Shown: positions 2,961 to 17,872 of the stretch, piece by piece
How positions within the stretch are numbered: the stretch's first letter is position 1
How the letters are laid out: every line of letters begins with the position of its first letter
Source of the DNA: an uncultured virus (IMG/VR IMGVR_UViG_3300044266_000359)
Lineage: Duplodnaviria > Heunggongvirae > Uroviricota > Caudoviricetes
Reading direction: 5' to 3' (one strand)
DNA: 20,000 nucleotides
Virus record (IMG/VR): IMGVR_UViG_3300044266_000359
Translations under genes and position numbers: made by a program
Notes under the pieces: generated by a model
Databases searched by the model: none
What the model saw: the letters and a program-made list of their open reading frames with translations, nothing else
Told to the model about the DNA's origin: nothing

Positions 2961-4192
2961 AAACAACTGAAAATTTAGATAACTGTAGTTTTTGTGGAAA
3001 ACACAAAGATCAAGTAGTTAAGCTCATTGTGGGCGCCGAAGTTGCAATTTGCAACGAGTGTGTGGACTTGTGCCAGACTTTGCTAGAAGATGCACCTGTT
3101 GCCAAAGCTGACAAAACGCCCGGTGCGCTTGATCCTAGAGAAATCAAACGTCACCTTGACGAGTATGTGATTGGGCAAGACCAAGCAAAAATTGTTCTCA
3201 GTGTAGCAGTTACCAACCACTACAAACGAATCAACAACAAAGAAAAACAAACCGAAGTCGAAAAAGCCAACATCCTCATGCTTGGTCCCACAGGATCAGG
3301 AAAAACACTGCTGGCCAGAAGCGTGGCCAGATATTTGGATGTGCCGTTTGTTATTGCAGACGCCACCAGTTTGACTGAAGCAGGATATGTGGGTGATGAT
3401 GTTGAGAGTTTGATCAGTCGGCTGTACGCAGCTTCTGGATTCGACGTTGAAAAAACACAGCGTGGTATTGTGTTTGTGGACGAAATTGACAAAATCAGCA
3501 GAAAAAGCGAAAGCACAAGTATTACCCGAGACGTGTCGGGCGAAGGCGTGCAACAGGCCCTGCTCAAGTTGGTTGAAGGCACCAAGTGCAGAATTCAACC
3601 AACTGGTGGTCGTAAACATCCAGGCGGGGACATGATCGAAATAGATACCACTGACATTCTGTTCATAGCAGGTGGTGCTTTTGTGGGCCTGGATAACATT
3701 GTTAAAAACCGTATCAAAGGCACCAGCATTGGATTCCAAGCTGAAGTCAACCAAGATACTCCTGGCAAATTAGACATGGTCACGCCCGACGATTTGGTAC
3801 GCTTTGGGTTGATTCCTGAGTTTGTGGGCAGATTCCCCAGTTGGGTAGCATTGCAAGAGTTAACGTTGGAAGATCTCATTTCCATTCTAACTGAAGTTAA
3901 AAACTGCTATGTTGATCAGTATCAATGGTTATTTGACCAAGATCAAGTTGCACTGACATTCGAAACTGACGCACTCAAACGCATAGCTGAAAATACCATC
4001 AAAAACAAAACTGGCGCCCGTGGGCTGCACAGTGAACTGGAGCGTGTGTTATTGCCGCACATGTTTAACTTGCCACGCTATCGAGACAGCGAAATCAACA
4101 GCCTTACAATCACTCAAGACCTGGTAAATAATCCTGTAGAACTAAAGGGATTACATGAACAAGTTGCGAGGAAGGTCAGTACTGGTCACTGA
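2957..4192 (+). CDS. clpX: ATP-dependent Clp protease ATP-binding subunit ClpX
   Basis: C4 zinc domain CSFC...CNEC, Walker [13 protein letters not shown] pore loop, Walker [22 protein letters not shown] loop, IGF loop and GARGL sensor II. Confidence 0.97.
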
Positions 4193-4379
4193 CGACAACA
4201 TAGAAAAAGCTCTGCGTAAGTTCAAAAAGAAAATCCAAAACTCGGACATTCTTAACGAGCTACGCAAAAGAGAGCATTACGTTAAACCTACCACCAAGCG
4301 CAAACTCAAACGTAGCGCGGCTAAAAATCGCTGGCGTAAAAAGCTGGACGATCAAGCATTGCCCAAGAAGCTATACTAA
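4155..4379 (+). CDS. rpsU: 30S ribosomal protein bS21
   Basis: 74-aa basic protein: NIEKALRKFKKK...ILNELRKREHYVKPTTKRK is the bS21 signature. Confidence 0.92.
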   Translation: MNKLRGRSVLVTDDNIEKALRKFKKKIQNSDILNELRKREHYVKPTTKRKLKRSAAKNRWRKKLDDQALPKKLY

Positions 4380-4618: not shown

Positions 4619-4645
4619 TTTGATTTCGTGTATAATAAATAACAA

Positions 4646-4695
4646 TGTAGCGCCGATGGTCGGGCTACAAAATTAATCTTGCTTTTCGAAGGAGA
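4646..4695 (+). promoter_or_regulatory. two-hairpin ROSE-like RNA thermometer leader of dnaK
   Basis: Hairpin 1 is UGUAGC-G-CCGA-UGG-UCGG-GCUACA (4646-4669). Hairpin 2 is UCUU-G-CUU-UUCG-AAG-GAGA (4677-4695), which hides the SD and carries the ROSE UUGCU motif with a bulged G. It is preceded by TAATAAATA (4633-4641). Confidence 0.75.
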
Positions 4696-4700
4696 ACACA

Positions 4701-6587
4701 ATGAGCAAAGTAATCGGTATCGATCTGGGTACCACAAATTCATGCGTAGCCGTGGTTGAAAACGGCAATTCCCGAGTAATTGAAAACAGCGAAGGTGCTA
4801 GAACAACTCCTAGTGTTGTTGCTTACACCAGCGACGATGTGCTGGTCGGTGCAAGCGCCAAGCGTCAAGCAATTACCAATCCCAAAAACACCATTTACGC
4901 AGCCAAGCGATTGATCGGACGCAAGTTCCGCGAAGATGCAGTGCAGAAGGACATCAACTTGATGCCGTATAGCATTGTGGAAAATGACAATGGTGATGCT
5001 TGGGTTCAAGCTGGCGATCGCCGACTGGCACCTCCACAAATCTCTGCAGAAGTTCTGCGTAAAATGAAAAAGACAGCAGAAGACTATCTTGGCACAGAAG
5101 TCACACAAGCTGTTATCACTGTCCCTGCTTACTTCAACGACAGCCAACGTCAAGCTACCAAAGATGCTGGACGTATCGCTGGACTAGAAGTATTGCGTAT
5201 TATCAACGAGCCAACTGCGGCTGCACTAGCATACGGCGTTGACAAAGCCGATAAAAAGGATCGCAAGATTGCTGTGTACGACTTGGGCGGCGGCACGTTT
5301 GACGTAAGCATCATTGAAATCGCCAACATTGACAATGAAAAGCAAATCGAAGTATTGAGCACCAACGGAGACACCTTCCTGGGCGGTGAAGACTTTGACC
5401 AGCGCATCATGGACTTCTTGGTCGACGAATTCAAGCGGGATACTGCTGTGGACTTGACCCGAGACGTACTGGCCTTGCAACGCTTGAAAGAAGCTGCTGA
5501 AAAAGCCAAGATTGAACTGTCAAGCAGCACTGCTACAGACGTCAACTTGCCTTATGTCACTGCTGATGCTAGTGGTCCCAAGCACATGAACATCAAGCTC
5601 ACTCGTGCCAAACTAGAGAGTTTGGTGGACGAGTTGATCCAACGCAGTATTGAACCTTGCCGCATTGCAATGAAAGATGCCGGTGTCACTGCTGATGAAA
5701 TTGATGAAGTTATTCTTGTTGGTGGCCAAACTCGCATGCCCCGAGTACAAGAAGCTGTGGAAAAACTGTTTGGCAAAGCACCGCGCCGGGATGTTAACCC
5801 TGACGAAGCAGTGGCTGCAGGCGCTGCTATTCAAGGAAGTGTGTTGGCCGGTGACCGCAAAGACGTGTTGCTGTTGGATGTTACACCGTTGAGCTTGGGC
5901 ATTGAAACCATGGGTGGTGTGTTTACTAAAATCATCCAAAAGAACACAACCATTCCTACCAAGGGCACACAAACATTCAGTACTGCTGAAGACAATCAGC
6001 CTGCTGTGACCATCAAGGTTGGACAAGGTGAGCGTGAGCTGTTCAAGTACAACAAAGAACTTGGTTTGTTTAATCTAGACGGTATTGCTCCTGCACCACG
6101 TGGCATGCCGCAAATTGAAGTTACCTTTGACATTGACGCCAATGGCATTATGCATATTTCGGCCAAAGACAAAGGCACCGGCAAAGAAAACAAAATCACT
6201 ATCAAGAGTGACTCAGGCTTGAAAGAGGATGAAATTCAACGCATGGTTCGTGAAGCTGAAGACAATGCCGAAGCTGACAAGAAACAAGTTGAATTGATTC
6301 AAGCTCGCAACACCGCAGAAGGTACGTTGCATGGGTTCCGCAAGGACTTTGATGCCTACAAGGATCAGGTCACAGAAGAAGAACGCAACCGAGCTGAACA
6401 AGCACTTCAAGATCTTGACACTGCTATTGGCGGTGATGACGTTGAGGAAATCAACGCAAAAACAACAGAATTGTACCAAGCTATCGGTCCTATCACCGGT
6501 AAAAAGTACGAAGCCGAGCAAAAGGCCAAAGCGGAATCCGAGAAAAAGGATGATGATGTGGTCGATGCCGAAGTCAAGGCTGCTTGA
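4701..6587 (+). CDS. dnaK: molecular chaperone DnaK (Hsp70)
   Basis: [47 protein letters not shown] and [13 protein letters not shown] motifs; C-terminal DDVVDAE. Confidence 0.99.
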
Positions 6588-6602
6588 TTTCGATAAGTAA
6601 AA

Positions 6603-6657
6603 ATACAGGTGCCGATGGTCGGGCCCGTATAACAAAGTCAACTTGCTTTATAAGGAG
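6603..6657 (+). promoter_or_regulatory. two-hairpin ROSE-like RNA thermometer leader of hsp20
   Basis: Hairpin 1 is AUAC-A-GGU-G-CCGA-UGG-UCGG-GCC-C-GUAU (6603-6630). Hairpin 2 is CUU-G-CUU-UAU-AAG-GAG (6642-6657). It is preceded by ATAAGTA (6593-6599). Confidence 0.78.
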
Positions 6658-6664
6658 AAATGAC

Positions 6665-7108
6665 ATGACTAAGACTTTAACACTACGCACATTCGATATC
6701 CCACAAATGCACAAGTTTGGGATTGGATTCGACAACATGTTTGATGAACTCATGCGTGTTACATCACAACAACAAACCAATTATCCTCCACACAATGTGA
6801 TCAAAACAGGTGAAAACACCTTGATCATTGAAGTGGCTGTGGCTGGCTTTGCCGAAGGCGAAATTGACATTCAGGTGGAGAAAAACTTGTTGACAATTCG
6901 TGGCGAGCAGGCACGTGAAACAGATGCCAGTTGGGAATTTTTGCATCGCGGAATTTCCAGCCGTGATTTTAGCCAAGCTTTTACTTTGGCCGATCACGTG
7001 GAAGTAAAAAGCGCCAGCATTACCAACGGCATTTTGAGTGTGTTTTTGGAACGCAAGATTCCAGAAGAAGCCAAGCCAAAGAGTATTGCTATTACCTACA
7101 ATAAGTAA
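6665..7108 (+). CDS. ibpA: small heat-shock protein, Hsp20/IbpA family (147 aa)
   Basis: IGFDNMFD, NYPPHNV, IEVAVAGF, FLHRGIS, NGIL and the C-terminal IAI (IxI) motif. Start moved to ATG 6665, 7 nt after AAGGAG. Confidence 0.95.
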   Translation: MTKTLTLRTFDIPQMHKFGIGFDNMFDELMRVTSQQQTNYPPHNVIKTGENTLIIEVAVAGFAEGEIDIQVEKNLLTIRGEQARETDASWEFLHRGISSRDFSQAFTLADHVEVKSASITNGILSVFLERKIPEEAKPKSIAITYNK

Positions 7109-7122
7109 TATAATGTAAATAC

Positions 7123-7146
7123 AGCAGTGGGAATGGTCCCACTGCT
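7123..7146 (+). promoter_or_regulatory. perfect 10-bp hairpin in the clpS leader
   Basis: AGCAGTGGGA-ATGG-TCCCACTGCT with no U-tract, just after GTAAATA (7115-7121). Its apex GA-AUGG-UC resembles hairpin 1 of the dnaK/hsp20 leaders. Confidence 0.6.
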
Positions 7147-7163
7147 ACAACAAGGATAATAAA

Positions 7164-7478
7164 ATGGCACAGTCAGATACACGTACCAAAATCAAGCCTA
7201 ACGAAGCTGTCAAAGAGCCACCGATGTTCAAGGTAGTTTATATCAATGACAATCAGACCAGCATGGAATTTGTGATTTCCAGCTTGGTTGATTATTTTGA
7301 TTACCGCATTGAAACTGCTGAACAAATCACCATTGACATTCACGAAACCGGCTCTGCTGTGGTAGCTGTGTTGCCTTATGAAATTGCCGAGCAAAAAGGC
7401 ATCGAAGTTACTCTCAATGCACGAGCACAAAGCTATCCGCTACAAATCAAACTTGAACCCGATGGCGTGGGTCAATAA
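7164..7478 (+). CDS. clpS: ATP-dependent Clp protease adaptor ClpS
   Basis: PPMFKVVYINDNQTSMEFV...IHETGSAVV...YEIAEQK...YPLQIKLEP. Confidence 0.93.
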   Translation: MAQSDTRTKIKPNEAVKEPPMFKVVYINDNQTSMEFVISSLVDYFDYRIETAEQITIDIHETGSAVVAVLPYEIAEQKGIEVTLNARAQSYPLQIKLEPDGVGQ

Positions 7479-8266
7479 TCAATTGTAATGCGCTTGGGGT
7501 GATACACCCAAGTTGACCACGGCGAACCACTGCGACCACGACAGTTATTCACATAACGAATATTGTCGTGCGTCTGGTCTACGCTGCCATGGTAGTGACC
7601 AAAGCACCAGGTGTGTATTTTCTTTTCAGAATCTGCTGCCAATACATGTTGCATATAACGATTGCCCATGGTATTGAATTTCAACGATCCCACTAGATTG
7701 ACGTCGTGGTTGATCAGCACAGGGTTGGGCACAGTGTGAGTGGCAACCACAATCTTTTTAACGTCAATATGTGTTTGCAAGCGTTTGATTGAACCGATCA
7801 TGTAGCTGGCATCGTTTGTACTCATCTTACGTATGTTTTCTATTTCGTTTAGGCCATAGAATTCTTTTTCTGCGTACCATTGGGCAGATTGATCGGGGTC
7901 TGTAACACCATCAAAGTCAAACCCCCACCAGCCGTTGGTTCCAATAATGGCCACACCGTCTACCACTACCACATTGTCTTGTAGATAAACAACATTGTGT
8001 ACCGCAGTAACACGATCCACCAAGTCACGATAGCTGTGTCCTAGATCTTGCATGTGGTTGGAGTGTTCGTCGTTGCCGTCGATATAAAACACAGCTTGAT
8101 AGCATTTGCCCAAGTGTGTGAGTGCTTCGATCAGCCGGTCTCGGTCCTTGGCAACGTCTCCTACTACCAAACAGTGGGCGCTGGTGCTGCGGTCAGTCCA
8201 GTCAAACGTTTCTTGCCAAGTATCTATGTGTAAATCAGAAATTAAATCAAAAGTAAATTGCATCAT
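7472..8266 (-). CDS. calcineurin-like metallophosphoesterase
   Basis: Motifs SDLH, VGD, GNDE (canonical GNHE), THTVP and FGHYH in the expected order. Confidence 0.88.
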   Translation of the reverse strand: MMQFTFDLISDLHIDTWQETFDWTDRSTSAHCLVVGDVAKDRDRLIEALTHLGKCYQAVFYIDGNDEHSNHMQDLGHSYRDLVDRVTAVHNVVYLQDNVVVVDGVAIIGTNGWWGFDFDGVTDPDQSAQWYAEKEFYGLNEIENIRKMSTNDASYMIGSIKRLQTHIDVKKIVVATHTVPNPVLINHDVNLVGSLKFNTMGNRYMQHVLAADSEKKIHTWCFGHYHGSVDQTHDNIRYVNNCRGRSGSPWSTWVYHPKRITIDY

Positions 8267-8289
8267 ACATATTTAGAAGGATTTTTATC

Positions 8290-8655
8290 ATGCATATAAT
8301 TTTTGGCGATGCCATAAAACACATACCCAATAGTTATACAGTATTGGAGTTAGATACCATACGTATAGAACCTGACAACCAAGAATTCAAGACCTACTGT
8401 GTGATTGAAAAAATTCCTTTGGCTGAGTTTCCTGTTGCAGAAATAAATCAAAAAGTTCATGCAGATTTGATACAACACTACAAGCAGCAGGACTGGCAAT
8501 TTTGCGAAGATGCAATCTCTGTACTGTACGGAAAATGGGACGGAGAAATAGATAGTTTTTATGACGACTTGAGCCGACGAATCAACGAGTATAAAAACGT
8601 CAAGTTAGAACCCAGCTGGGATGGCACACTGGTGCGTTCTATAAATACTCAATGA
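8290..8655 (+). CDS. hypothetical protein resembling the C-terminal tail of class III adenylate cyclases
   Basis: AAGGA SD; ELDTI...KTY followed by a helical YKQQDW...FY...WDG segment. Resemblance judged by eye only. Confidence 0.6.
   Translation: MHIIFGDAIKHIPNSYTVLELDTIRIEPDNQEFKTYCVIEKIPLAEFPVAEINQKVHADLIQHYKQQDWQFCEDAISVLYGKWDGEIDSFYDDLSRRINEYKNVKLEPSWDGTLVRSINTQ
8640..8647 (+). promoter_or_regulatory. T4-late-like promoter TATAAATA
   Basis: Exact T4 late consensus, 4 nt before the SD-less desaturase ATG. Confidence 0.65.
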
Positions 8656-9362
8656 CAGAATTAATTGCAACCCTAGTAATGACGCACATTACCATTGCTT
8701 GTGTTACCTTGTATTTGCATCGTAGCCAAGCTCATCGCAGCGTGACCTTTCACCCAGCGATAGCACATTTCATGCGTTTTTGGTTGTGGCTCACAACAGG
8801 CATGGTTACCAAACAGTGGGTGGCCATACATCGCAAACACCATAGATACAGTGATCGATCAGGCGACCCGCACAGTCCATTGGTGTATGGTATCCGCAGA
8901 GTTTTCTTTCAAGGAGCAGGTTTATATCATGAAGCAAGCAAAGATCGTGTTATGGTTGACGCATACGGTGCTGGTACTCCTGCTGATTGGATGGAGCGCA
9001 ACGTATACAGTGCTCACTCCAGACTTGGCATTGGCCTTCTCTTTTTGTTCAACGTTGCCGTTTTCGGTTGGGTCGGCGCCTTAATATGGTTGGTACAAAT
9101 GGCGTGGATTCCGTTTTGGGCAGCGGGAGTGATTAACGGCCTAGCACATTGGTGGGGATATAGAAATGGTGAAACTAGAGACAACAGTAGAAATATTAGT
9201 CCCATTGGTATTATCATCGGTGGTGAATGCTTACATAATAATCACCATCTTGACCCTGCTAGTGCCAAACTGAGCCGACGTTGGTTTGAGTTTGATATTG
9301 GTTGGATGTATATTGTTATTTTGCGTTCAGCGGGGTTGGCAAAGGTTACCCAGGCAAAGTAA
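8652..9362 (+). CDS. membrane fatty acid desaturase (delta-9-like)
   Basis: Three His boxes (HRSQAH, HRKHH, HNNHH), plus DPHSP, INGLAHWWG, FDIGW and TM segments. Confidence 0.93.
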   Translation: MTELIATLVMTHITIACVTLYLHRSQAHRSVTFHPAIAHFMRFWLWLTTGMVTKQWVAIHRKHHRYSDRSGDPHSPLVYGIRRVFFQGAGLYHEASKDRVMVDAYGAGTPADWMERNVYSAHSRLGIGLLFLFNVAVFGWVGALIWLVQMAWIPFWAAGVINGLAHWWGYRNGETRDNSRNISPIGIIIGGECLHNNHHLDPASAKLSRRWFEFDIGWMYIVILRSAGLAKVTQAK

Positions 9363-9542
9363 CTTGAACTGTTCCATTTGATCCTGCGCTTCTACCACAG
9401 CACCCATCCAGAACCATTGATCCAGCATGGATTCCACAAACAGGTCCATGTACCAGTTAAACAATGGGCTGTTGAGCCAGGGCTCTGATTGTTGGACCAG
9501 CAGGCGGTTCCACGCCTGCCCTAGTTGATAAAACTCATACAT
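9327..9542 (-). CDS. hypothetical protein (71 aa, Trp-rich)
   Basis: Coupled by TGATG to the small upstream ORF; overlaps the desaturase tail-to-tail by 36 nt. Confidence 0.55.
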   Translation of the reverse strand: MYEFYQLGQAWNRLLVQQSEPWLNSPLFNWYMDLFVESMLDQWFWMGAVVEAQDQMEQFKLLCLGNLCQPR

Positions 9543-9628
9543 CAGCTTGATTTAGTAGGGGTAATAGGTGCGGGCTTGTTGCCATTGAATGGCGGGTTTT
9601 TGGGTGGATTATGTTTGAACCAACTCAT
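9542..9628 (-). CDS. 28-aa Pro/Lys-rich peptide MSWFKHNPPKNPPFNGNKPAPITPTKSS (not in ORF track)
   Basis: ATG lies 5 nt after a perfect TATAAATA on the minus strand, and the stop overlaps the next ATG (TGATG). Confidence 0.55.
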   Translation of the reverse strand: MSWFKHNPPKNPPFNGNKPAPITPTKSS

Positions 9629-9633
9629 GCTGG

Positions 9634-9641
9634 TATTTATA
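9634..9641 (-). promoter_or_regulatory. T4-late-like promoter TATAAATA
   Basis: Reads tatttata on the + strand. Confidence 0.65.
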
Positions 9642-9711
9642 TGTGACGTTGTGATTTTTTCAGGCCAGTGTAAAATAGCGATAAATTATTCTATTACATT
9701 AAGGAACATTC

Positions 9712-10953
9712 ATGAAAAAAATCGGGTTTATTGGGATTGGCAAGCTAGGCTTAGACTGTGCTGAAGTAATGGCTGAAAAGCATGAAGTTCGCGGATATGA
9801 CATCTATCCACGAACCAGTGATTCAGTAAAAGTCTGTGACATCAGCGAGCTGGTCAATGAAAGCGAGTGGATTTTTATCGCAGTCCCAACACCACATGCC
9901 GAAGGCTATGATGGAAGTGTGCCAAGCTCGCACATGGAACCACGTGACTTCGGACACGACGCTGTGATTGACGCAATCAAGAACGTAAACAAGTATGCTA
10001 CATCTCCTAAAAAGGTTGTGCTGATTTCTACAGTGCTACCGGGCACAACACGCAAGCACTTTTATCCTTTGCTGGACAAGCAACATCAGTTCTTGTACAA
10101 TCCCTACTTGATTGCCATGGGATCAGTAAAATGGGACATGGCCAATCCTGAAATGGTCATGATTGGTACAGAAGATGGCAACCCCAATGCTCTGGCCGGT
10201 GAGTTGATTGATTTGTACAAAACCATGATGCAAAACAATCCACGCTATGAAATTGGTACCTGGGACGAGTGCGAAGCAATCAAGATTTTCTACAATACCT
10301 TTATTTCAGCCAAGGTTGGTCTGGTCAACATGATTCAAGACTTTGCCATGCGTATTGGACACATCAACGTTGACGTTGTGACCAATGCTCTAGCTCGAAG
10401 CACCATGCGTATCATGGGACCCAAGTACATGACCGCAGGCATGGGCGATGCAGGCGCTTGCCACCCACGTGACAACATTGCTCTGCGTTGGTTGGCCAAA
10501 GAGTACAATTTGGGCTATGACTTGTTTGACACAGTGATGCATGCCAGAGAAATCCAAGCCAAAAACTTGGCCATGTTCTTGGTGGACTTGAGTGTGATGA
10601 ACGACAACTTGCCCATTGCCATTCACGGCAAAGCATACAAGCCCGACGTTCCCTACTGCATTGGTAGCTACAGCACCTTGGTTGGACACTATGTTGAACA
10701 AGAAGGTAAATCGGTTGTGTACGTCGATCCCTTGGCCGATGATCCAACCAACGTGGTTGAAAAGGTTGGTGGACCTGCAATCTTTTTATGGGCACATGAT
10801 CGCAAGATCACTTACGAATACACTGGTGACCAACCCGAAACTCAACCTTATTGTGAAATCCTCCCAGGATCCATTATTGTTGACCCTTGGCGCAAGCTGA
10901 AATCGGGCAACGGCATTGAAGTTATTCATTACGGTAACACCCGTCAACAATAA
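9712..10953 (+). CDS. UDP-glucose/GDP-mannose dehydrogenase family protein
   Basis: Rossmann GIGKLG, IAVPTP, STVLPGTT, catalytic Lys region EAIKIFYN, catalytic Cys in GMGDAGACHPRD and GKAYKP. Confidence 0.92.
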   Translation: MKKIGFIGIGKLGLDCAEVMAEKHEVRGYDIYPRTSDSVKVCDISELVNESEWIFIAVPTPHAEGYDGSVPSSHMEPRDFGHDAVIDAIKNVNKYATSPKKVVLISTVLPGTTRKHFYPLLDKQHQFLYNPYLIAMGSVKWDMANPEMVMIGTEDGNPNALAGELIDLYKTMMQNNPRYEIGTWDECEAIKIFYNTFISAKVGLVNMIQDFAMRIGHINVDVVTNALARSTMRIMGPKYMTAGMGDAGACHPRDNIALRWLAKEYNLGYDLFDTVMHAREIQAKNLAMFLVDLSVMNDNLPIAIHGKAYKPDVPYCIGSYSTLVGHYVEQEGKSVVYVDPLADDPTNVVEKVGGPAIFLWAHDRKITYEYTGDQPETQPYCEILPGSIIVDPWRKLKSGNGIEVIHYGNTRQQ

Positions 10954-10954
10954 C

Positions 10955-10983
10955 TTGACAAATAAACCCAATACGTGTATAAT
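10955..10983 (+). promoter_or_regulatory. consensus sigma70 promoter of uvsE
   Basis: TTGACA-17 bp-TATAAT; the ATG follows 6 nt later. Confidence 0.85.
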
Positions 10984-10989
10984 TACACT

Positions 10990-12009
10990 ATGACTACACG
11001 TATTGGCTTTTGCTGCAAATGGCTCGATGACCCTGCTGAAACTGCAGGCCGTAAACCCACGTCTGAGAGCCGTGACCTAAATGGACGTTCCACTACCATG
11101 CGTTGGCTCCGTGAACATGCGGACGAAGCCGAACAACGCCAGTGGGACATTATGAACCACAATGCCCGTGCGGCTCTGCTTATGGTAGAACGTGTGGGCA
11201 CACTGCCTCCTGAACGCAGAATGGTGCGTCTGGGTAGCGAAATGCTACAAGGCTACACAGAACCTTCATGGATAGATTGGTGGCAACGACGTGAAATACA
11301 AGATCACTGTGAACGAATCTTTGCGCCGGTTGGAGACGCTGCTCGGCGTCTTGGTGTACGGCTATCCTTCCATCCAGGGCAATTTTGTGTACTGGCAAGC
11401 GAGTCGGATGAAATCGTGGAGAGATCCATACTCGAGTTTGAGTATCATACAGACATGGCGCGGTGGATGGGATTTGGCCATGACTTTCATGATTCGGGAT
11501 TCAAGATCAACGTACACTTATCGGGCAAAGGCGGTCCTGCTAAGTTTTTGCAGACGCTGAAACGTCTGTCACCTGAGGCTAGAAACCTTATCACTATCGA
11601 AAACGACGAGATGTCAAATGGGCTTGATACTACTTTACTTGTGGCTGAGCATTGTGCTCTTGTGCTGGATATTCATCACCACTGGGTCAAAACAGGCGAA
11701 TATATCGACCCCGCGGACGCTCGTGTTCAGCGGGTTCGTGAGTCTTGGCGTGGTGAGCGTCCTGTACTCCATTTTTCTACTAGCCGCGAAGATATTTTGG
11801 TTGACCATGATCCAAACGTTCGACCAGACCTTGCTGCTCTTATTGCTGGAGGTCATAAAAAACAGCAACTCCGGGCACACAGTGACTTCTATTGGAACCA
11901 TGCTGTGAACGACTGGGCCTTGAGCTTTGCTGATCGCTTTGACATACAATGCGAGGCCAAGGGCAAGAACCTAGCAAGTGAACAGATCTATGAACGACTT
12001 ATTGGTTAA
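10990..12009 (+). CDS. uvsE: UV damage endonuclease (UvsE/UVDE family)
   Basis: RIGFCC, RLSFHP, ENDE, DIHHH, RAHSD and EAKGK motifs. Start moved to ATG 10990 because the GTG at 10975 lies inside the promoter. Confidence 0.92.
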   Translation: MTTRIGFCCKWLDDPAETAGRKPTSESRDLNGRSTTMRWLREHADEAEQRQWDIMNHNARAALLMVERVGTLPPERRMVRLGSEMLQGYTEPSWIDWWQRREIQDHCERIFAPVGDAARRLGVRLSFHPGQFCVLASESDEIVERSILEFEYHTDMARWMGFGHDFHDSGFKINVHLSGKGGPAKFLQTLKRLSPEARNLITIENDEMSNGLDTTLLVAEHCALVLDIHHHWVKTGEYIDPADARVQRVRESWRGERPVLHFSTSREDILVDHDPNVRPDLAALIAGGHKKQQLRAHSDFYWNHAVNDWALSFADRFDIQCEAKGKNLASEQIYERLIG

Positions 12010-12277
12010 TACCTTTAGTTGGATACGAGATGATTTCCGGTCTTATCCTACTAGGTTTGTTGTTGAGTTGCTTGCTTGGGCTATTAGCATTGGGTGCAGT
12101 ATTACTATGGCTCTTACTGTCCCCAACCCACCCTTACTCACCTTATATCCTATTTGGATCTCTGGTTGCGCCATGTATGCTTGGGCTGCTTATACTAGGA
12201 AATCATTTGGCATGCTGGTTAACTACCTGCTTCTTGTGACCATTGATTCAGTTGGCCTATTTAGGATGCTTATGTAA
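11990..12277 (+). CDS. small membrane protein (about 3 TM helices)
   Basis: 95 aa from ATG 11990, strongly hydrophobic; overlaps the end of uvsE. Confidence 0.78.
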   Translation: MNDLLVNTFSWIRDDFRSYPTRFVVELLAWAISIGCSITMALTVPNPPLLTLYPIWISGCAMYAWAAYTRKSFGMLVNYLLLVTIDSVGLFRMLM

Positions 12278-12349
12278 GCAGATATTTCTTTCGTTTAGTT
12301 ACCATAAGTAATAGGTACTCAAGTACGCTATACTCTAAGGTGAACAATA

Positions 12350-13801
12350 ATGATAAGAACTATCACTGCGGGGTTACTTGCCGTTTCAATGGCCGGAGCC
12401 GTTTCCGCACAAACTCTAATTAATCAAAGCTCTATATCCAGTGGATATGGATCTGCTAGCTTAATAGATACCAACAGTACTTCTAACTCAGTTAGTACTG
12501 TTAATACCACAAATACCAGCACAGCTACGACTAACAGCACCGCTACCAGTACTGTTACGTCCACCAACGTAAACACCAACAACAACGTAAACAGTGGTGC
12601 TGTGACTTATACCAACAACAACGTAAACAGTGGGTCGGTAACCTATACCAACAACAACGTTGCGTCGGGGGAAGTAACATACAACAACGTAAACAGTGGC
12701 ACAGTGAATTACAACAACACAAATACCAGCACTGCCACAAATACTAACAACAACACAAATACCAGCACAAGCACCAATACAAACACAAACAACAACACAA
12801 ATACCAACACCAGTACCAGCACTGCTACAAACACCAACAATAACACAAATACCAGTACCAGTACCAATACAAACACAAACAACAACACAAATACCAACAC
12901 AAATACCAGCACATCAACCAACACCAACAACAACACAAATACCAACACTAGTACCAATACAAACACCAATACAAACATAAACACCAATAACGGTACTATG
13001 AATTACAACAACACCAACACAAGCACAGCCACTAACACAAACAACAACACCAGTACCAGTACTGCAACTAACACAAACAACAACACCAGTACTAGCACCA
13101 ACACAAACACCAATAACAATACCAACACATCAACTAGTACCAACACAAACACCAATAACAATACAAGTACCAGTAACAACGTGAACACTAACACAAATAC
13201 CAGTACTGCTACAAATACTAATACCAACAACAATACCAATACCAGTACAAGTAACAATGTGAATACAAACACCAATACGTCGACTAGCACCAGTACAAGT
13301 AGTAACAACAACGTCAACCAAAACGTACAAACTGGAGACATGACCAATCGTAATATTAACGATACTACAATTACACAAAAGATTATTCAGCCTCCACCAA
13401 CTGCTATTGCTCCAATGATGATGAGCGGCGGCAACCAAGACCTGTGTACAACTGGCACATCCAGTGCTGTACAAACACAAATCTTTGGTGTGTCAACAGG
13501 CGGTACAGTACGTGACTTGAATTGTGAACGTTTGAAGTTGAGCAAGACATTGTTTGATATGGGTATGAAAGTTGCTGCCGTTGCTACAATGTGCCAAGAC
13601 AAGCGTGTTTGGGATGCTATGATGGCTGCAGGAACACCTTGCCCATACGAAGGCAAGATTGGTGAACAGGCCAAGGCTGCATGGGAAGCAAACCCAACCA
13701 AGGTACCACCTGAACCAGAAAAGGAAGTGAAAGATGACACTTATCAGAAAGTTGGCTTTGGTGCTCTTATTGGCATCTTGGTTAACAAGTGGTTCAACTA
13801 A
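12350..13801 (+). CDS. secreted protein with long Asn/Thr/Ser repeat region and Cys-containing C-terminal domain
   Basis: Signal peptide ending AVSA-Q, ~250-aa N/T tract, then PPPTAIAP...DLC...NCERLK...MCQD...GTPCP and a hydrophobic tail. Confidence 0.88.
   Translation: MIRTITAGLLAVSMAGAVSAQTLINQSSISSGYGSASLIDTNSTSNSVSTVNTTNTSTATTNSTATSTVTSTNVNTNNNVNSGAVTYTNNNVNSGSVTYTNNNVASGEVTYNNVNSGTVNYNNTNTSTATNTNNNTNTSTSTNTNTNNNTNTNTSTSTATNTNNNTNTSTSTNTNTNNNTNTNTNTSTSTNTNNNTNTNTSTNTNTNTNINTNNGTMNYNNTNTSTATNTNNNTSTSTATNTNNNTSTSTNTNTNNNTNTSTSTNTNTNNNTSTSNNVNTNTNTSTATNTNTNNNTNTSTSNNVNTNTNTSTSTSTSSNNNVNQNVQTGDMTNRNINDTTITQKIIQPPPTAIAPMMMSGGNQDLCTTGTSSAVQTQIFGVSTGGTVRDLNCERLKLSKTLFDMGMKVAAVATMCQDKRVWDAMMAAGTPCPYEGKIGEQAKAAWEANPTKVPPEPEKEVKDDTYQKVGFGALIGILVNKWFN
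12575..13320 (+). repeat. coding tandem repeats: three 36-bp units plus one shortened unit (TNNNVxSGxVTY), then degenerate NTNNNTNTSTST-type units
   Basis: Units start at 12575, 12611, 12647 and 12683. An AC-rich low-complexity tract follows, with variable synonymous Thr/Asn/Ser codons. Confidence 0.9.
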
Positions 13802-15722
13802 CAGCCAAGAACTAGTACCTGGTCAAGTTTATAACACACAAAACTTGACCAATAACTCTACTTCTGCCAGTTCTACTACTGGAACTTGGCAGAACGTTGG
13901 TTTGTGGAATCAGGGATTGCCATGCTGGGCACCAGGCGGGCCCACCTATTGCGGACCAAAACCTTATTTCAATAACGGTAGTGTGAACTTTTCCTATGGC
14001 ACCACTGACTTGAATCAAGTAGTGAACATTGCTGCGGCATTGCCTACCAGCAGCACTGGATTGAGAGTTAATGGTTTCAATTTTGGATTCACTGCTAAAA
14101 ACGGCAATGGCTGGGACGATGGTCGCCAAGACTATCTTGCAGCCTATGTTAAATTCCGTGACACTAGTGGGGCTGTGGTTGCCAATTACGACTACTCCGG
14201 CAGTACCAATCGCCAATACAACTGGACCACATTTAATTTTAGTGAGACATTTACTACACCTTATGCTGCCAAAGATTTGAGCACAGCGCAATACGGGTTT
14301 GTTGGAAGAGACAACAACTTCTGGGCCGGACCATACGGACCTGAAATCCAAGGAATAAATTTCAGTTTGAAATATTCAGTAGACCCTTGTGTGAAAGATC
14401 CGCTGTCAAGCCCAACCTGTTCAGGCTTCTTGGACGCATTGAGTAAAACAACTGGTGCAACCTCCACTTCGGCAACAACTACCACAGCTTCGCCTGCCAC
14501 AGTGGCAGCAACTACAACAACTGAAACACCAGTTACAACAACTACCACAACAGTATCTGGACCACCACCTTCTGCGGTTTCTGCTGATTTGTTGTCTAAG
14601 ATTGTGGAAAGCAATCGAACTGCTAATGCAGCCTCTGCGGCCAGCATTACAGCCGCCACAAATCTAAATGACAAATCTTCTGTGGCAGCATTTGCGCTGT
14701 CAGTGATTGCAAAAAATGCAGCCAATGACCGAGCAATACAAGAAAAAGCAGTAGGAGATGCAATAGCTTCTGCCAATGCGGCTGCAACAGCAGCAGTTGA
14801 GCAGGCACAAGCAATTGCATTGACTCAAAGTCTAGCCAGTGCAAACACTGCCAATAGACTTGCTGGAGCTGCGGTTGCAAGCAGTGGTCCAGCGCCTGGC
14901 GTTAATACTGCTGCATCAGTTCCAGCAGCTGGAGTCAATAATGCGGTGACAGGTCCAGCACCTGGTGCTACTATTGCAAATAATGCCACTGTGGTGACCA
15001 ATAACACAGGTGCAATACAAACTGGCAACAACAATAATATCACAGCACAGAACAGTTTACCATTGCTAGCCCCAGCACCTGCACCGGTTGTGGAAAACAC
15101 TGCACCAACGCAATCAACTGCGCCAGTAGTTCAAACAGCAGTGGTGCAAAATAACAATGTTTCCTTGCCAAGTACTACGCCAGTTGTAGCCAGTTTTGAG
15201 CTGTTACCGCCATCGATCTCAACTGCAACACAACCTGTGACATCAAACCCTGCACAAGGATTAAACGTAGCAATAACATCTACACCATTTACGCCTGCAC
15301 CAGTTTTTGTTTCACCGGCGCCAGTTTTTGTTTCACCAGCGCCAGTAATTGAATTGCCAAAATTCAAAGAAGTCGAAAGCAGTCGTAACATAGACATGAG
15401 CTCACCCACTGACTTTGTTGCTGGATATGTAAACACCAAACACAACCTAAATGACATGCAAGCCACAACAAACGCACCAGCAGTGAACAGCAAAGCACAA
15501 GACAATGATGCTGCCGGTGGCGTTACTATTGCAGCCATTGCAAAAATGCCACCAGGATACGATCTATATACGTCACTGTCAATTAGAGATGCAAACTTCT
15601 ACAAGCCAGAAGAGTTGTATCGTGGACAAAAGACTGTGGACAATGTTAGATTACTAAGAGGTTTGACTGGAGCTAGTGATAGAGTCCATCAAGAAATGGT
15701 TGATAGCCAATATAACAAATAA
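13734..15722 (+). CDS. secreted protein with N-terminal aromatic beta-rich domain and long Ala/Thr/Pro low-complexity stalk
   Basis: Signal-like N-terminus; W/Y/F/G-rich domain ending FWAGPYGPEI...VDPCVKDPLSSPTCSG; overlaps the upstream gene by 68 nt. Confidence 0.85.
   Translation: MTLIRKLALVLLLASWLTSGSTNSQELVPGQVYNTQNLTNNSTSASSTTGTWQNVGLWNQGLPCWAPGGPTYCGPKPYFNNGSVNFSYGTTDLNQVVNIAAALPTSSTGLRVNGFNFGFTAKNGNGWDDGRQDYLAAYVKFRDTSGAVVANYDYSGSTNRQYNWTTFNFSETFTTPYAAKDLSTAQYGFVGRDNNFWAGPYGPEIQGINFSLKYSVDPCVKDPLSSPTCSGFLDALSKTTGATSTSATTTTASPATVAATTTTETPVTTTTTTVSGPPPSAVSADLLSKIVESNRTANAASAASITAATNLNDKSSVAAFALSVIAKNAANDRAIQEKAVGDAIASANAAATAAVEQAQAIALTQSLASANTANRLAGAAVASSGPAPGVNTAASVPAAGVNNAVTGPAPGATIANNATVVTNNTGAIQTGNNNNITAQNSLPLLAPAPAPVVENTAPTQSTAPVVQTAVVQNNNVSLPSTTPVVASFELLPPSISTATQPVTSNPAQGLNVAITSTPFTPAPVFVSPAPVFVSPAPVIELPKFKEVESSRNIDMSSPTDFVAGYVNTKHNLNDMQATTNAPAVNSKAQDNDAAGGVTIAAIAKMPPGYDLYTSLSIRDANFYKPEELYRGQKTVDNVRLLRGLTGASDRVHQEMVDSQYNK
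15300..15346 (+). repeat. 21-bp tandem duplication (PVFVSPA x2)
   Basis: ccagtttttgtttcaccggcg / ccagtttttgtttcaccagcg followed by ccagt. Confidence 0.9.
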
Positions 15723-15737
15723 TAAAAGGAGCCAGAA

Positions 15738-16325
15738 ATGGGAGAGGAAATCAAAGACTTAAACAAGGAAGTCGACAAATTAGAAGAAGCAGCCAAAAAG
15801 TACGCTAGCAAGGACACAGTGATCAGCATTGGTGGGTATGAATTCACGCCGGCCAAGCTCATGGTAGCATTTACGTTAGCCAGTTCACTGCTAGGCGGTT
15901 TGTATGGTGCGTTTGAAGTGTACAAAGACTACATAGGCATGAAGAAAAAGATTGCTGAATACACAGCACCAGACCTGTCAGGATTTGACAAACGTCTGGC
16001 CGTGATTGAAGAAAACAGTCAAAAAGCGTCGGACTACACTCGTGATATCAAAACTGATTTGAAGAGTGACATTCGCCGCAATGAGTCAGTCACAGAACAA
16101 GTGGAACGCAGTGTCAAACAAGCACAGCGCGAAACTGAACAAGAGATGCGTCAAGCACGCAAAGATGTGCGTGAAGACCTGGACAAGGCACGCAATGAAG
16201 TCAATGCTATCCGCAAGGAAATGGCAGAAGCACGTAGAGAAATTTCACGTGAAGTTGAGCAACTCAAACGTGAAGTAGATGGCAAGATTCAAAAGGCCAT
16301 CGACAATCCCTTGGCTAACAAATAA
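15738..16325 (+). CDS. single-TM coiled-coil protein
   Basis: AAGGAG SD; TM LMVAFTLASSLLGGLYGAF followed by 11-residue-periodic charged helices. Confidence 0.85.
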   Translation: MGEEIKDLNKEVDKLEEAAKKYASKDTVISIGGYEFTPAKLMVAFTLASSLLGGLYGAFEVYKDYIGMKKKIAEYTAPDLSGFDKRLAVIEENSQKASDYTRDIKTDLKSDIRRNESVTEQVERSVKQAQRETEQEMRQARKDVREDLDKARNEVNAIRKEMAEARREISREVEQLKREVDGKIQKAIDNPLANK

Positions 16326-16477
16326 TGTATACCACTTACTTCTTAATAGGGTTTGTTACATCGTTTGGATGGTGGTCAGCAGGCAAAGTACAAAAGTCAG
16401 TTGACAACACTGTTGTTGAAATAAGGGTTGAAACCAAGACAGTTGCACCTGCCAAACCAACGACCGATGCAAAGTAA
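16325..16477 (+). CDS. 50-aa membrane-anchored protein MYTTYFLIGFVTSFGWWSAGK... (not in ORF track)
   Basis: TAATG coupling to the upstream gene, fills the gap to the next ORF, hydrophobic N-terminus. Confidence 0.7.
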   Translation: MYTTYFLIGFVTSFGWWSAGKVQKSVDNTVVEIRVETKTVAPAKPTTDAK

Positions 16478-16483
16478 AATGCC

Positions 16484-17035
16484 ATGGTCGATCCTATTTC
16501 CATTGGCGCAGCGTATCTAGTTGCCAAAACAGCAGTAGGTGGAATCAAGGAAGCTATTAGGCTTGGAAAAGACGCTGGTGAAATAGCCGGCGAAATTTCC
16601 AAGTTTTTTCATTCTGCAGTCACAGTAGAAAAGGCTGCTAAAAAAATTGACGCTGACCGCGTGGTCAAGATGAAGCAGGATGTCAAGAAAGGCGACCTCA
16701 AAGGCTATTACGAACTCACAGCCGAAGCTATGGACATTGCCATCAAGGCCGAAGAAGTCAAACGATTTGAAGAAGAAATCAAAGATACGCTAATATGGTC
16801 CGGACGTGGACACATTTACTATACCATGGTAAGTGAACGCAATAGAATGGAAGCTGAACAGGCCCGAGCCATTGCTCTTGAAGAACTAGAGCAAGCTAGA
16901 ATAGAACAAGAAAAGCAACATCAAAAAGAAATGACACGAGACTTGATGTGGTGCGCGGCTGCTATAACACTAACCGGCTTGTTTCTCTGGTGGGTGGTTG
17001 ATTTTATGATAACCAAAAAAATGGGAGTTGTTTGA
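16484..17035 (+). CDS. helical protein with C-terminal TM anchor
   Basis: MVDPISI N-terminus, coiled coil and TM LMWCAAAITLTGLFLWWVV. Confidence 0.82.
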   Translation: MVDPISIGAAYLVAKTAVGGIKEAIRLGKDAGEIAGEISKFFHSAVTVEKAAKKIDADRVVKMKQDVKKGDLKGYYELTAEAMDIAIKAEEVKRFEEEIKDTLIWSGRGHIYYTMVSERNRMEAEQARAIALEELEQARIEQEKQHQKEMTRDLMWCAAAITLTGLFLWWVVDFMITKKMGVV

Positions 17036-17053
17036 CAACCCCCATTGCGTAGA

Positions 17054-17401
17054 TTACTCTTTGGCTTTTTTAGCACGAGGCTTAGCCGGAGCTTTCATAG
17101 CTGCTGGCTTTTTTGCGGCTGCTTTTTTAGCTGCTGGCTTTTTAGCAGGTGTTTTTGTTTCTGTCTTGGCTTCTACTACCGGAGCAGGATTGGCAGGATG
17201 CTTGTTCCACTCTTCTGCAGTCAAACTGTGTAGTCCCACACAATAACCAGACGGGCTACGACCGCAGCCGCACTTGGTTGGTTCTACCTTTGTGGTAGGT
17301 GCTTCGGCAGCAGGTGTTTCTACTTTGTAAGGCGCAACAGAGTCATTCTGGGCCGGGTGACCTTTTCGGTTTAATATAAAATCAAATAATGTTTTGAACA
17401 T
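17054..17401 (-). CDS. protein with CDGSH-like Cys3His motif and histone-H1-like Ala/Lys/Pro tail
   Basis: AGGAG SD; CGCGRSPSGYCVGLH (17228-17272); tail PAKKPAAKKAAAKKPAAMKAPAKPRAKKAK. Confidence 0.82.
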   Translation of the reverse strand: MFKTLFDFILNRKGHPAQNDSVAPYKVETPAAEAPTTKVEPTKCGCGRSPSGYCVGLHSLTAEEWNKHPANPAPVVEAKTETKTPAKKPAAKKAAAKKPAAMKAPAKPRAKKAKE

Positions 17402-17418
17402 TTGGTTCTCCTCGGGGG

Positions 17419-17427
17419 TATTTATTA
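17419..17427 (-). promoter_or_regulatory. T4-late-like promoter TAATAAATA
   Basis: Lies just upstream of the SD of ORF 17054-17401. Confidence 0.55.
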
Positions 17428-17452
17428 GTGACCATTCACTACAAAAAACTTA

Positions 17453-17481
17453 TTGCACTGCACAAAAAAATCATATATAAT
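17453..17481 (+). promoter_or_regulatory. sigma70 promoter with overlapping PhaR-type operator
   Basis: TTGCAC-17 bp-TATAAT. TGCACTGCACAA (17454-17465) fits the PhaR consensus TGCRNYGCASMA, recalled from Bradyrhizobium work. Confidence 0.65.
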
Positions 17482-17486
17482 AGTAC

Positions 17487-17537
17487 ATAGGACGCTGAAT
17501 AGGTCGGGTCCTATAGTAGACTTGCTTACTTAAGGAG
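17487..17537 (+). promoter_or_regulatory. third copy of the two-hairpin ROSE-like leader
   Basis: AUAGGAC-G-CUGA-AUAGG-UCGG-GUCCUAU (17487-17514) and CUU-G-CUU-ACUU-AAG-GAG (17521-17537). Confidence 0.72.
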
Positions 17538-17543
17538 AAAATT

Positions 17544-17825
17544 ATGTTTACACTAGACGCAACCATCGACGCCGTACAAAACGGTAAAAAACAATTCGTT
17601 AACACTTTCGTTCCAAACGAAAGCGTAAAAGAAACACTGAATAATTTCATTGACGCCCAAGCCGAATACACCAAGGCTGCGGTCAAAGTCGGACAAGACA
17701 CAGCTACCAAGTTGGCTAGCGAAATGACCAAGGCCATTGGCGAAGCTGCCAAGTTTGACTACACCAAGTTTGGCGAAGGCGTAATGAAGGCCTATGACAA
17801 CTTGGCCAAAGCCACTAAAAAGTAA
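17544..17825 (+). CDS. small amphipathic helical protein, putative phasin-like (93 aa)
   Basis: The ORF itself is solid (AAGGAG SD, terminator). The phasin-like call is inferred from Ala/Lys-rich amphipathic helices and the PhaR-type box. Confidence 0.55.
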   Translation: MFTLDATIDAVQNGKKQFVNTFVPNESVKETLNNFIDAQAEYTKAAVKVGQDTATKLASEMTKAIGEAAKFDYTKFGEGVMKAYDNLAKATKK

Positions 17826-17845: not shown

Positions 17846-17872
17846 AAGCCCCTGTTTTAGGGGCTTTTTTTT
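17846..17872 (+). terminator. Rho-independent terminator
   Basis: AAGCCCCT-GTTTT-AGGGGCTT with a T-run to 17872. Confidence 0.9.

Follow-up and report, generated by a model that had tools for sequence, protein, structure and literature searches.

We analysed a window of 20,000 nucleotides (nt) of DNA from an uncultured virus (Caudoviricetes; IMG/VR record IMGVR_UViG_3300044266_000359), in which three plus-strand genes are each preceded by a two-hairpin RNA leader. The window belongs to an 88,493-base contig of a large uncultured phage whose virus record is about 25% complete. The first gene, dnaK (4701..6587, 628 amino acids), matches Pfam HSP70 with an E-value of 7.8e-256 and the NCBIfam DnaK model above its cut-off. 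The second, hsp20 (6665..7108, 147 amino acids), encodes a class A, IbpA-type small heat-shock protein (sHsp) whose best NCBIfam match is IbpA at 120 bits, under the cut-off of 212, and whose predicted model has a confidence score (predicted local distance difference test, pLDDT) of 70.9. The third, gene 3 (17544..17825), encodes a 93-amino-acid, all-helical phage protein. Here we describe the leaders and the co-variation of their bulged bases with one residue of Hsp20, which we propose as their reader.

Inspection of the sequence placed all three leaders where the first-pass annotation had located them. In hairpin 2, a UUGCU stretch is paired to the Shine-Dalgarno (SD) sequence around a bulged G. 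This hairpin spans 4678..4694 before dnaK (pattern and folding), 6642..6657 before hsp20 and 17521..17537 before gene 3 (both by pattern and Rfam match), with the bulged G at 4681, 6645 and 17524 and the ATG 6, 7 and 6 nt past AAGGAG, respectively. The pattern CTTGCTT-N2-6-AAGGAG occurs three times in the window and was absent from 200 shuffles; no fourth copy of the SD hairpin was found in the entire contig with one mismatch allowed. Hairpin 1 lies upstream at 4646..4669 (bulged G 4652, -12.3 kcal/mol at 37 °C), 6603..6630 (bulged G 6611, -9.3 kcal/mol at 37 °C) and 17487..17514 (bulged G 17494, -11.9 kcal/mol at 37 °C). It folds as had been described, except that the outer stem of the hsp20 copy contains one A-C mismatch. 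The inner CCGA/UCGG sequence, which had been singled out as a conserved element, did not hold up: relatives keep the bulge core instead.

The identification as ROSE-like was borne out by U(U/C)GCU pairing to the SD with a bulged G in all three copies. The Rfam model ROSE_3 (RF02523) matched the gene 3 leader with 29.6 bits (E 0.014) and the hsp20 leader with 23.4 bits over all 69 model positions, short of the gathering score of 43 bits, and the dnaK copy was absent from the Rfam matches. As a control for this cut-off, the same model exceeded 43 bits in 0 of 14 control genomes. The ROSE_3 consensus itself includes a bulged first hairpin, and hairpin 1 is therefore not new. A third weak ROSE_3 match in the contig, at 29025, was set aside as it lies inside a reading frame, and the remaining eight of the ten Rfam matches were weak and to unrelated families.

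Folding gave the two hairpins unequal weight. Upstream, hairpin 1 is stable (-9 to -12 kcal/mol), and hairpin 2 is marginal in the energy model, appearing in the centroid structure of none of six folds; the free energy of its core crosses zero near 20–25 °C. The predicted opening of the SD is shallow and no different from that of the contig's other AGGAG genes, in a folding model that omits non-canonical pairs. The energy model charges the same cost for a G bulge and an A bulge.

A promoter-like TATAAT/TAAATA box, overlooked in the first-pass annotation, lies before the dnaK leader on the plus strand (4631..4641) and may serve as its promoter. Among homologous leaders, TAAATA was found upstream of the stem in 89 of 133 anchored sequences, compared with 16 of 3539 background windows. 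Control by CIRCE or sigma32 was considered and rejected, in agreement with the first-pass annotation: no CIRCE-like site was found in the contig at up to three mismatches, and none of the 28 sigma32-like sites in the contig lies within 250 nt upstream of a leader. A role of hairpin 1 as a DNA-level operator was likewise set aside, since the variety of its base pairs, among them G-U, and a bulge on one side only indicate RNA.

We then examined relatives. The original proposal had been made to depend on conservation of the motif before homologous genes, and the leader is indeed kept at homologues. A motif scan of viral contigs returned at least 120 loci, which among the matches listed lie mostly before hsp20 and in some cases before dnaK, groES or gene 3. 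Among loci picked by protein (80 dnaK, 80 hsp20 and 34 gene 3), the leader is kept in nearly all dnaK and hsp20 cases, and a strict pattern recovered the SD hairpin in 47 of 52 unique hsp20 leaders. For gene 3, it is present in 6 of 29 unique upstream regions of homologues, mainly those of near relatives; about half of the close homologues have it. In 15 large phage records we counted 41 SD-hairpin matches, 29 of them with hairpin 1. These 29 two-hairpin leaders precede hsp20 (14), gene-3-like genes (9), dnaK (5, with hairpin 1 of one taken from a separate leader comparison) and groES (1). The other 12 stand before other or no genes, 11 without an upstream hairpin and one with a weak non-core hairpin, and one of the 15 records has no SD-hairpin match at all. 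Thus the suggestion that the element reaches beyond hsp20 stands, with a small and specific gene set of hsp20, dnaK, the phasin-like gene and groES. All eight cultured marine phages examined, one of them on Prochlorococcus, carry a leader with G in both bulges before an hsp20 gene encoding Ala-Gly at the position discussed below.

Using the core as the sole anchor, we compared the outer stem of hairpin 1 across 168 leaders, of which 133 could be used and 35 had no core by that rule. The positions of this stem are paired in 73% of cases, column shuffles giving 48% (maximum 53%), and as many as six pair types occur at one position. A MAFFT alignment of 65 leaders placed hairpin 1 out of register, and pairs were therefore counted by script. 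As a separate observation, several leaders (L159, L191, L194, L198, L465, L502 and others; many with A bulges, some with G) contain a third small hairpin between the two, in which a G/C-rich stem of 5 bp closes a 3-nt loop.

Both hairpins carry the same core unit, namely a pyrimidine·G pair, a bulged purine, a C-G pair and then a pyrimidine-purine pair. Its presence in hairpin 1 places it where melting cannot free the SD. In 281 unique leaders the bulge letters of hairpins 1 and 2 are G/G in 213 and A/A in 37. Of the rest, 20 have an unparsed hairpin 1, which in most cases is a minimal UUCG form; a C or a T was parsed in 7, A/G in 3 and G/A in 1. By eye, those of the last three kinds are mostly parse errors, with one A/G real. 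Shuffled controls gave a strong hairpin in 82 of 1405 cases, with mixed bulge letters. Where one contig has both genes, the bulge letters at dnaK and hsp20 switch in concert, and the stems around them differ. In Escherichia coli, the leaders of ibpA and ibpB likewise have the twin bulged-G core, once in a hairpin upstream and once in the SD hairpin. In structures of the ROSE stem, the G is reported as bulged out in a crystal and paired by NMR (PMC11342760).

Next, we compared the bulge letter with the Hsp20 sequence. In 175 full-length Hsp20s, the column corresponding to IbpA residue 54 (Ala60 here, codon 6842..6844) is Ala in 156 of 158 proteins with G-type leaders, and Thr in 15 and Ser in 2 of the 17 with A-type leaders. 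This residue belongs to an A-G doublet at the dimer interface that is reported as 97% conserved in class A sHsps (PMC2850924). Since this first A-type set formed one clade, we carried out three further searches, for the Thr or Ser codon, for A-bulge leaders and for the Val or Ile codon. The Thr/Ser search, which overlaps the discovery clade, gave 93 unique viral leaders (and three without a start). Next to Thr54, the SD-hairpin bulge is A in 38 of 38, and the hairpin 1 bulge is A in 31, unparsed in 6 and another base in 1; dnaK leaders beside a Thr54 Hsp20 have an A in the SD hairpin in 17 of 17 cases. Ser54 leaders are G/G in 44 of 55 cases, A/A in 2, mixed in 4 and other in 5, and the rule that Ser54 means A was rejected on this count.

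The search by A-bulge leader covered 179 unique leaders from viral and metagenome sequences. Seven are not before hsp20, and seven have an overlapping G core with Ala54 (five unable to fold in the A register, two able to). The remaining 165 hsp20 leaders encode Thr (143), Ser (9), Ile (6), Val (4) or Ala (3), so that 162 have a residue other than Ala; three of the Thr rows were parsed with G in hairpin 1. The Val/Ile search gave 57 unique leaders (and one without a start), of which all four with Ile54 are A/A. Those with Val54 (n = 53) comprise 35 G/G, 11 mixed, 6 with G and a U-A inner pair by eye and 1 unparsed, and on these grounds a rule that any beta-branched residue means A was dropped as well. 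Conversely, all 83 Ala54 leaders among the protein-picked loci are G/G, one label having been set right against the alignment. These comparisons establish, at the level of sequence, that residue 54 tracks the bulge: Ala goes with G, Thr and Ile go with A, and Ser and Val go mostly with G, with mixed cases.

On a 98-row tree built without column 54, A/A leaders need seven changes, at least four of which are forced by strong branches. The Ile A/A group is nested inside mixed Val proteins, which are themselves nested inside G/G Val proteins. A single clade for the Thr and Ile groups was rejected by the approximately unbiased test (p 1.8e-38, five long-branch rows left out), which indicates that at least two switches were independent. 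Column 54 is the only one that is disjoint from the sister sequences in both switches, which have 2 and 12 disjoint columns.

We propose that, on the scaffold of a short ROSE element, the leader acts as a translational operator that is read by the Hsp20 of the phage itself and is probably still heat-assisted, and we put the probability of this reading at roughly 0.6. Transcripts would probably begin a few bases before hairpin 1. According to sequence comparison and folding, the stable hairpin 1 displays the bulged purine between its pyrimidine·G and C-G pairs, and the weak hairpin 2 contains the SD and displays the identical core. By analogy with E. coli IbpA, free Hsp20 oligomers may bind both cores and keep hairpin 2 closed. 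Unfolded protein, whether caused by heat or by the burden of making phage proteins, would draw Hsp20 into aggregates; upon this titration, hairpin 2 would open, with warmth helping, and Hsp20, DnaK and the gene 3 protein would be translated. Residue 54, presumably in contact with the base, would set or permit its preference, Ala favouring G, Thr and Ile favouring A, and Ser and Val being permissive. For gene 3, host PhaR may provide a further gate on the DNA itself. Our best estimate, somewhat better than even, is that two layers are joined in the phage leader: an SD hairpin that is weak, and a clamp formed by protein, Hsp20 being the reader. The idea that the sHsp might bind the leader had been raised before as a side remark; the co-variation of the bulge with residue 54 is the best comparative evidence for it.

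The nearest precedent for the protein layer is the self-repression of E. coli IbpA (ibpA, ibpB, rpoH). IbpA oligomers are reported to repress ibpA and ibpB translation through leaders whose stem-loops are needed, and to be titrated by aggregates (bioRxiv 2020.04.20.050740); Arg93, which is near Tyr34, is required for RNA binding (PMC10474464). Similar to E. coli, the phage system has a class A sHsp, equivalents of Tyr34 and Arg93 and a twin bulged-G core. Tyr40, Ala60 and Arg100 of the phage Hsp20 align with IbpA Tyr34, Ala54 and Arg93, and the Arg93 equivalent is Arg in 166 of 175 phage Hsp20s. The phage element differs in standing directly on dnaK, and Arg97 and Lys98 are not kept. IbpA is described as having no action on the E. 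coli dnaK and groES leaders, which it reaches through sigma32 (PMC10410725). No RNA determinant and no role of Ala54 is given in the available text of the three IbpA papers (bioRxiv 2020.04.20.050740; PMC10474464; PMC10410725). A search of the PDB gave no sHsp-RNA structure among 13 sequence matches.

Several observations weigh against an Hsp20-read operator. The positive charges of Arg97 and Lys98 are reported to be needed in E. coli IbpA (PMC10474464), and here they are replaced by Gln104 and Ala105; among 175 relatives, 142 have Arg or Lys at position 97, and few do at position 98. In Pseudomonas, hairpin 2 alone acts as a thermometer in reporters and in vitro (PMC3669281). Most A-type sequences fall in one Thr clade, and independent events are few, two being clear and the total reaching about five at most. 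With 2 and 12 disjoint columns, an overlap in one column is not very unlikely by itself. There are also exceptions to the residue 54 rule. In one phage lineage (three leaders), Ala54 occurs with an SD-hairpin bulge of A and a hairpin 1 of non-standard form. Thr54 occurs with a G bulge in a gammaproteobacterial genome that gave just one Hsp20 match. The latter is the one usable Thr54 case among the matches listed in a bacterial scan of at least 120 loci, which are mostly Bradyrhizobium with Ser54. In Ser54 bacteria (again mostly Bradyrhizobium), the SD hairpin has G and the upstream bulge is C in 86 of 104 unique leaders parsed. Finally, L180 has Ser54 and is nevertheless all-A, so Ser is not always mixed. 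Apart from this comparison, we note that the upstream hairpin of the Bradyrhizobium-type Ser54 sHsp leaders (L563-L681) is highly conserved, with a bulged C replacing the G.

The best surviving alternative is a pure RNA thermometer, in which hairpin 2 melts, hairpin 1 aids folding or guards the 5′ end, and no protein reads the bulge. UUGCU/SD pairing with a bulged G is the ROSE hallmark, the two-hairpin element of Pseudomonas has been tested as a thermometer (PMC3669281), a zero crossing of the hairpin 2 core at 20–25 °C is plausible for surface water, and the targets are mostly chaperone genes. However, melting leaves three things unexplained, namely the same core in hairpin 1, the joint bulge switch of two genes and the tracking of Hsp20 residue 54 by the bulge in separate lineages. 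The predicted opening is, moreover, as shallow as in other genes, with the caveat on non-canonical pairs given above. We regard this explanation as unlikely.

A concerted switch calls for one reader without naming which, and it could be host IbpA or a further host or phage RNA-binding protein, residue 54 having changed with lineage or host. The contig is about 25% complete and the residue 54 rule has exceptions, both of which leave room for another reader. On the other hand, column 54 is otherwise nearly fixed, with A-G in 97% of class A proteins (PMC2850924), and two phage candidates are missing from many carriers. RegA was rejected, being absent from 8 of 8 related records and found in 2 positive controls. 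DnaK was rejected as well: dnaK is absent from 8 of 10 records searched and found in 2, all with an hsp20 leader, and no dnaK motif occurs within 2.6 kb in 79 Val/Ile loci. As to host IbpA, cyanophages keep the leader on hosts that reportedly either lack sHsps or have class B ones, Prochlorococcus being reported without sHsp genes (PMC3827213). We therefore consider another reader improbable. Still more remote is a module for 5′ stability and SD tuning that was inherited, was copied from hsp20 to other genes and regulates nothing specifically, the joint bulge changes arising by repeated copying inside a genome: hairpin 1 does lie at the inferred 5′ end, a stabilising role has been suggested for it in Pseudomonas (PMC3669281) and only about half of the close gene-3 homologues have the leader, but the stems and loops around the bulges differ between sites of one genome, against block copying, and within-genome copying predicts no link to residue 54.

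Extending the Hsp20-read operator beyond phages, we tentatively suggest, at somewhat less than even odds, that ROSE elements before class A sHsp genes are sequence-specific sHsp operators whose repeated core is recognised through the A-G doublet, residue 54 deciding between G and A. Such operators would give phages a sigma32-free chaperone regulon, and lineages with the A code would form orthogonal protein-RNA pairs that may be shielded from a host IbpA that reads G. The class of RNA is not new; what appears to be new is the co-variation of bulge and residue 54, together with the twin core in both hairpins. The available text of two papers does not settle how IbpA recognises its target RNAs (bioRxiv 2020.04.20.050740; PMC10410725), and that of a third gives no explanation for the conservation of the first ROSE hairpin (PMC3669281). 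The phage data yield a concrete prediction, in that the bulged purine would be the recognised base and residue 54 would set the preference. If this is true, a textbook RNA thermometer class is a protein operator too, phages control their chaperones through an aggregation-sensing circuit of their own that needs no sigma32, and there are repressor-leader pairs in nature that are orthogonal to one another. If the thermometer explanation alone holds, a ROSE-like element on phage chaperone genes is a modest extension. The interest thus lies in a testable recognition code and not in the thermometer label.

Lambda cIII is a known phage RNA thermometer, a structured 5′ leader that covers the SD of a single gene. 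Closest in architecture is the Pseudomonas ibpA ROSE_3 element (RF02523), which has two hairpins, UUGCU/SD pairing with a bulged G, a bulged-G hairpin 1 and a class A sHsp gene downstream; it works as a thermometer via hairpin 2, and the text available assigns no established role to its conserved first hairpin (PMC3669281). In contrast, the present leaders are phage-borne and below the family cut-off, stand also on dnaK, groES and a phasin-like gene, have TAAATA or TATAAT boxes in place of sigma32 sites and a weaker SD hairpin, and have relatives with an A bulge. Structured phage 5′ leaders covering the SD are also described for SPbeta blyA and a Caudoviricetes sigma70 gene; these are of the fourU class and act on single genes, and none in the portion available is a ROSE-type set on phage chaperones (PMC11182007). 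In our literature searches, which did not extend to most subscription papers, neither the presence of ROSE-type leaders before hsp20 or dnaK of phages nor the bulge-residue link was reported, and neither topic is covered in the accessible parts of PMC9004378 and PMC11182007.

Gene 3 carries a second, putative regulatory element, which the first-pass annotation had overlooked. A PhaR-type palindrome on the plus strand (17450..17466) overlaps a weak -35 box (17453-17458), 17 nt before a TATAAT (17476-17481), and a terminator-like hairpin follows the gene (17846..17866). The palindrome matches the Bradyrhizobium PhaR consensus exactly (PMC6201568) and the Ralstonia PhaR 17-mer with one mismatch (PMC12849132). 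A PhaR-type core was found upstream of 9 of 29 gene-3 homologues, compared with 5 of 1254 background windows. As in the PhaR-phaP circuit of PHB-storing proteobacteria, the palindrome fits both consensuses and overlaps the -35 box of a gene for a small helical protein; the differences are its phage location, a protein that scores under every phasin cut-off and the additional ROSE-type leader, a combination unreported in the available text of these papers (PMC6201568; PMC12849132).

The gene 3 family has 395 close homologues, from phage, and the predicted all-helical model of its product has a pLDDT of 86.7. On balance, and with a good deal of likelihood, we take its product to be phasin-like from its sequence relationships, and the earlier label thus stands in part: 7 of 150 proteins scanned match Phasin_2 (E 1e-4 to 8e-3) and no other family recurs, but every match is below the family cut-off. 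The 150 proteins scanned were 149 of 150 distant relatives and one divergent case. A weak TIGR01841 match, also below cut-off, was found in all five Phasin_2-matching relatives that were re-scanned. Gene 3 itself gave no phasin match in Pfam or NCBIfam profile searches, no match among cultured phages and no relative of solved structure. A fold search returned PhaP (5IP0) with Z 7.1, a root-mean-square deviation of 1.9 and 69 aligned residues at rank 20 among unrelated helices, and is thus unspecific; named Atlas clusters at 0.84-0.87 are leads only. A divergent, helical-looking protein of 88 amino acids (L709:1237-1503, minus strand), unmatched to gene 3, has both a two-hairpin leader and a PhaR-type core, so that this pairing of elements may have come about in another small gene family as well. 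Outside the window (G000:C1:65952-65968), a further PhaR-type palindrome, accompanied by a TAAATA box, stands before a small minus-strand gene with a strong SD.

The window also encodes clpX, bS21, clpS, a desaturase and uvdE, and the replication genes of the contig are, judging by their translations, presumably T4-like. The clpX, bS21 and clpS genes (2957-4379 and 7164-7478) flank dnaK-hsp20 without a leader, from which it appears that the element covers chaperones and not protease genes. Three phage genes that we take to resemble queD (L685, L695, L705) share a different conserved leader, which lies some 95 nt upstream of the start codon, combines a short stem with an A-rich tail and has no Rfam match up to E 0.5. 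Two large secreted-looking proteins lie at 12350-15722, for which a Pfam search gave no informative match; one contains a long Asn/Thr repeat and the other is Ala/Thr/Pro-rich. At the hsp20 start, an out-of-frame ATG-ACA-TGA (6660-6668) overlaps the start codon 2 nt past the SD, probably too near to it for use.

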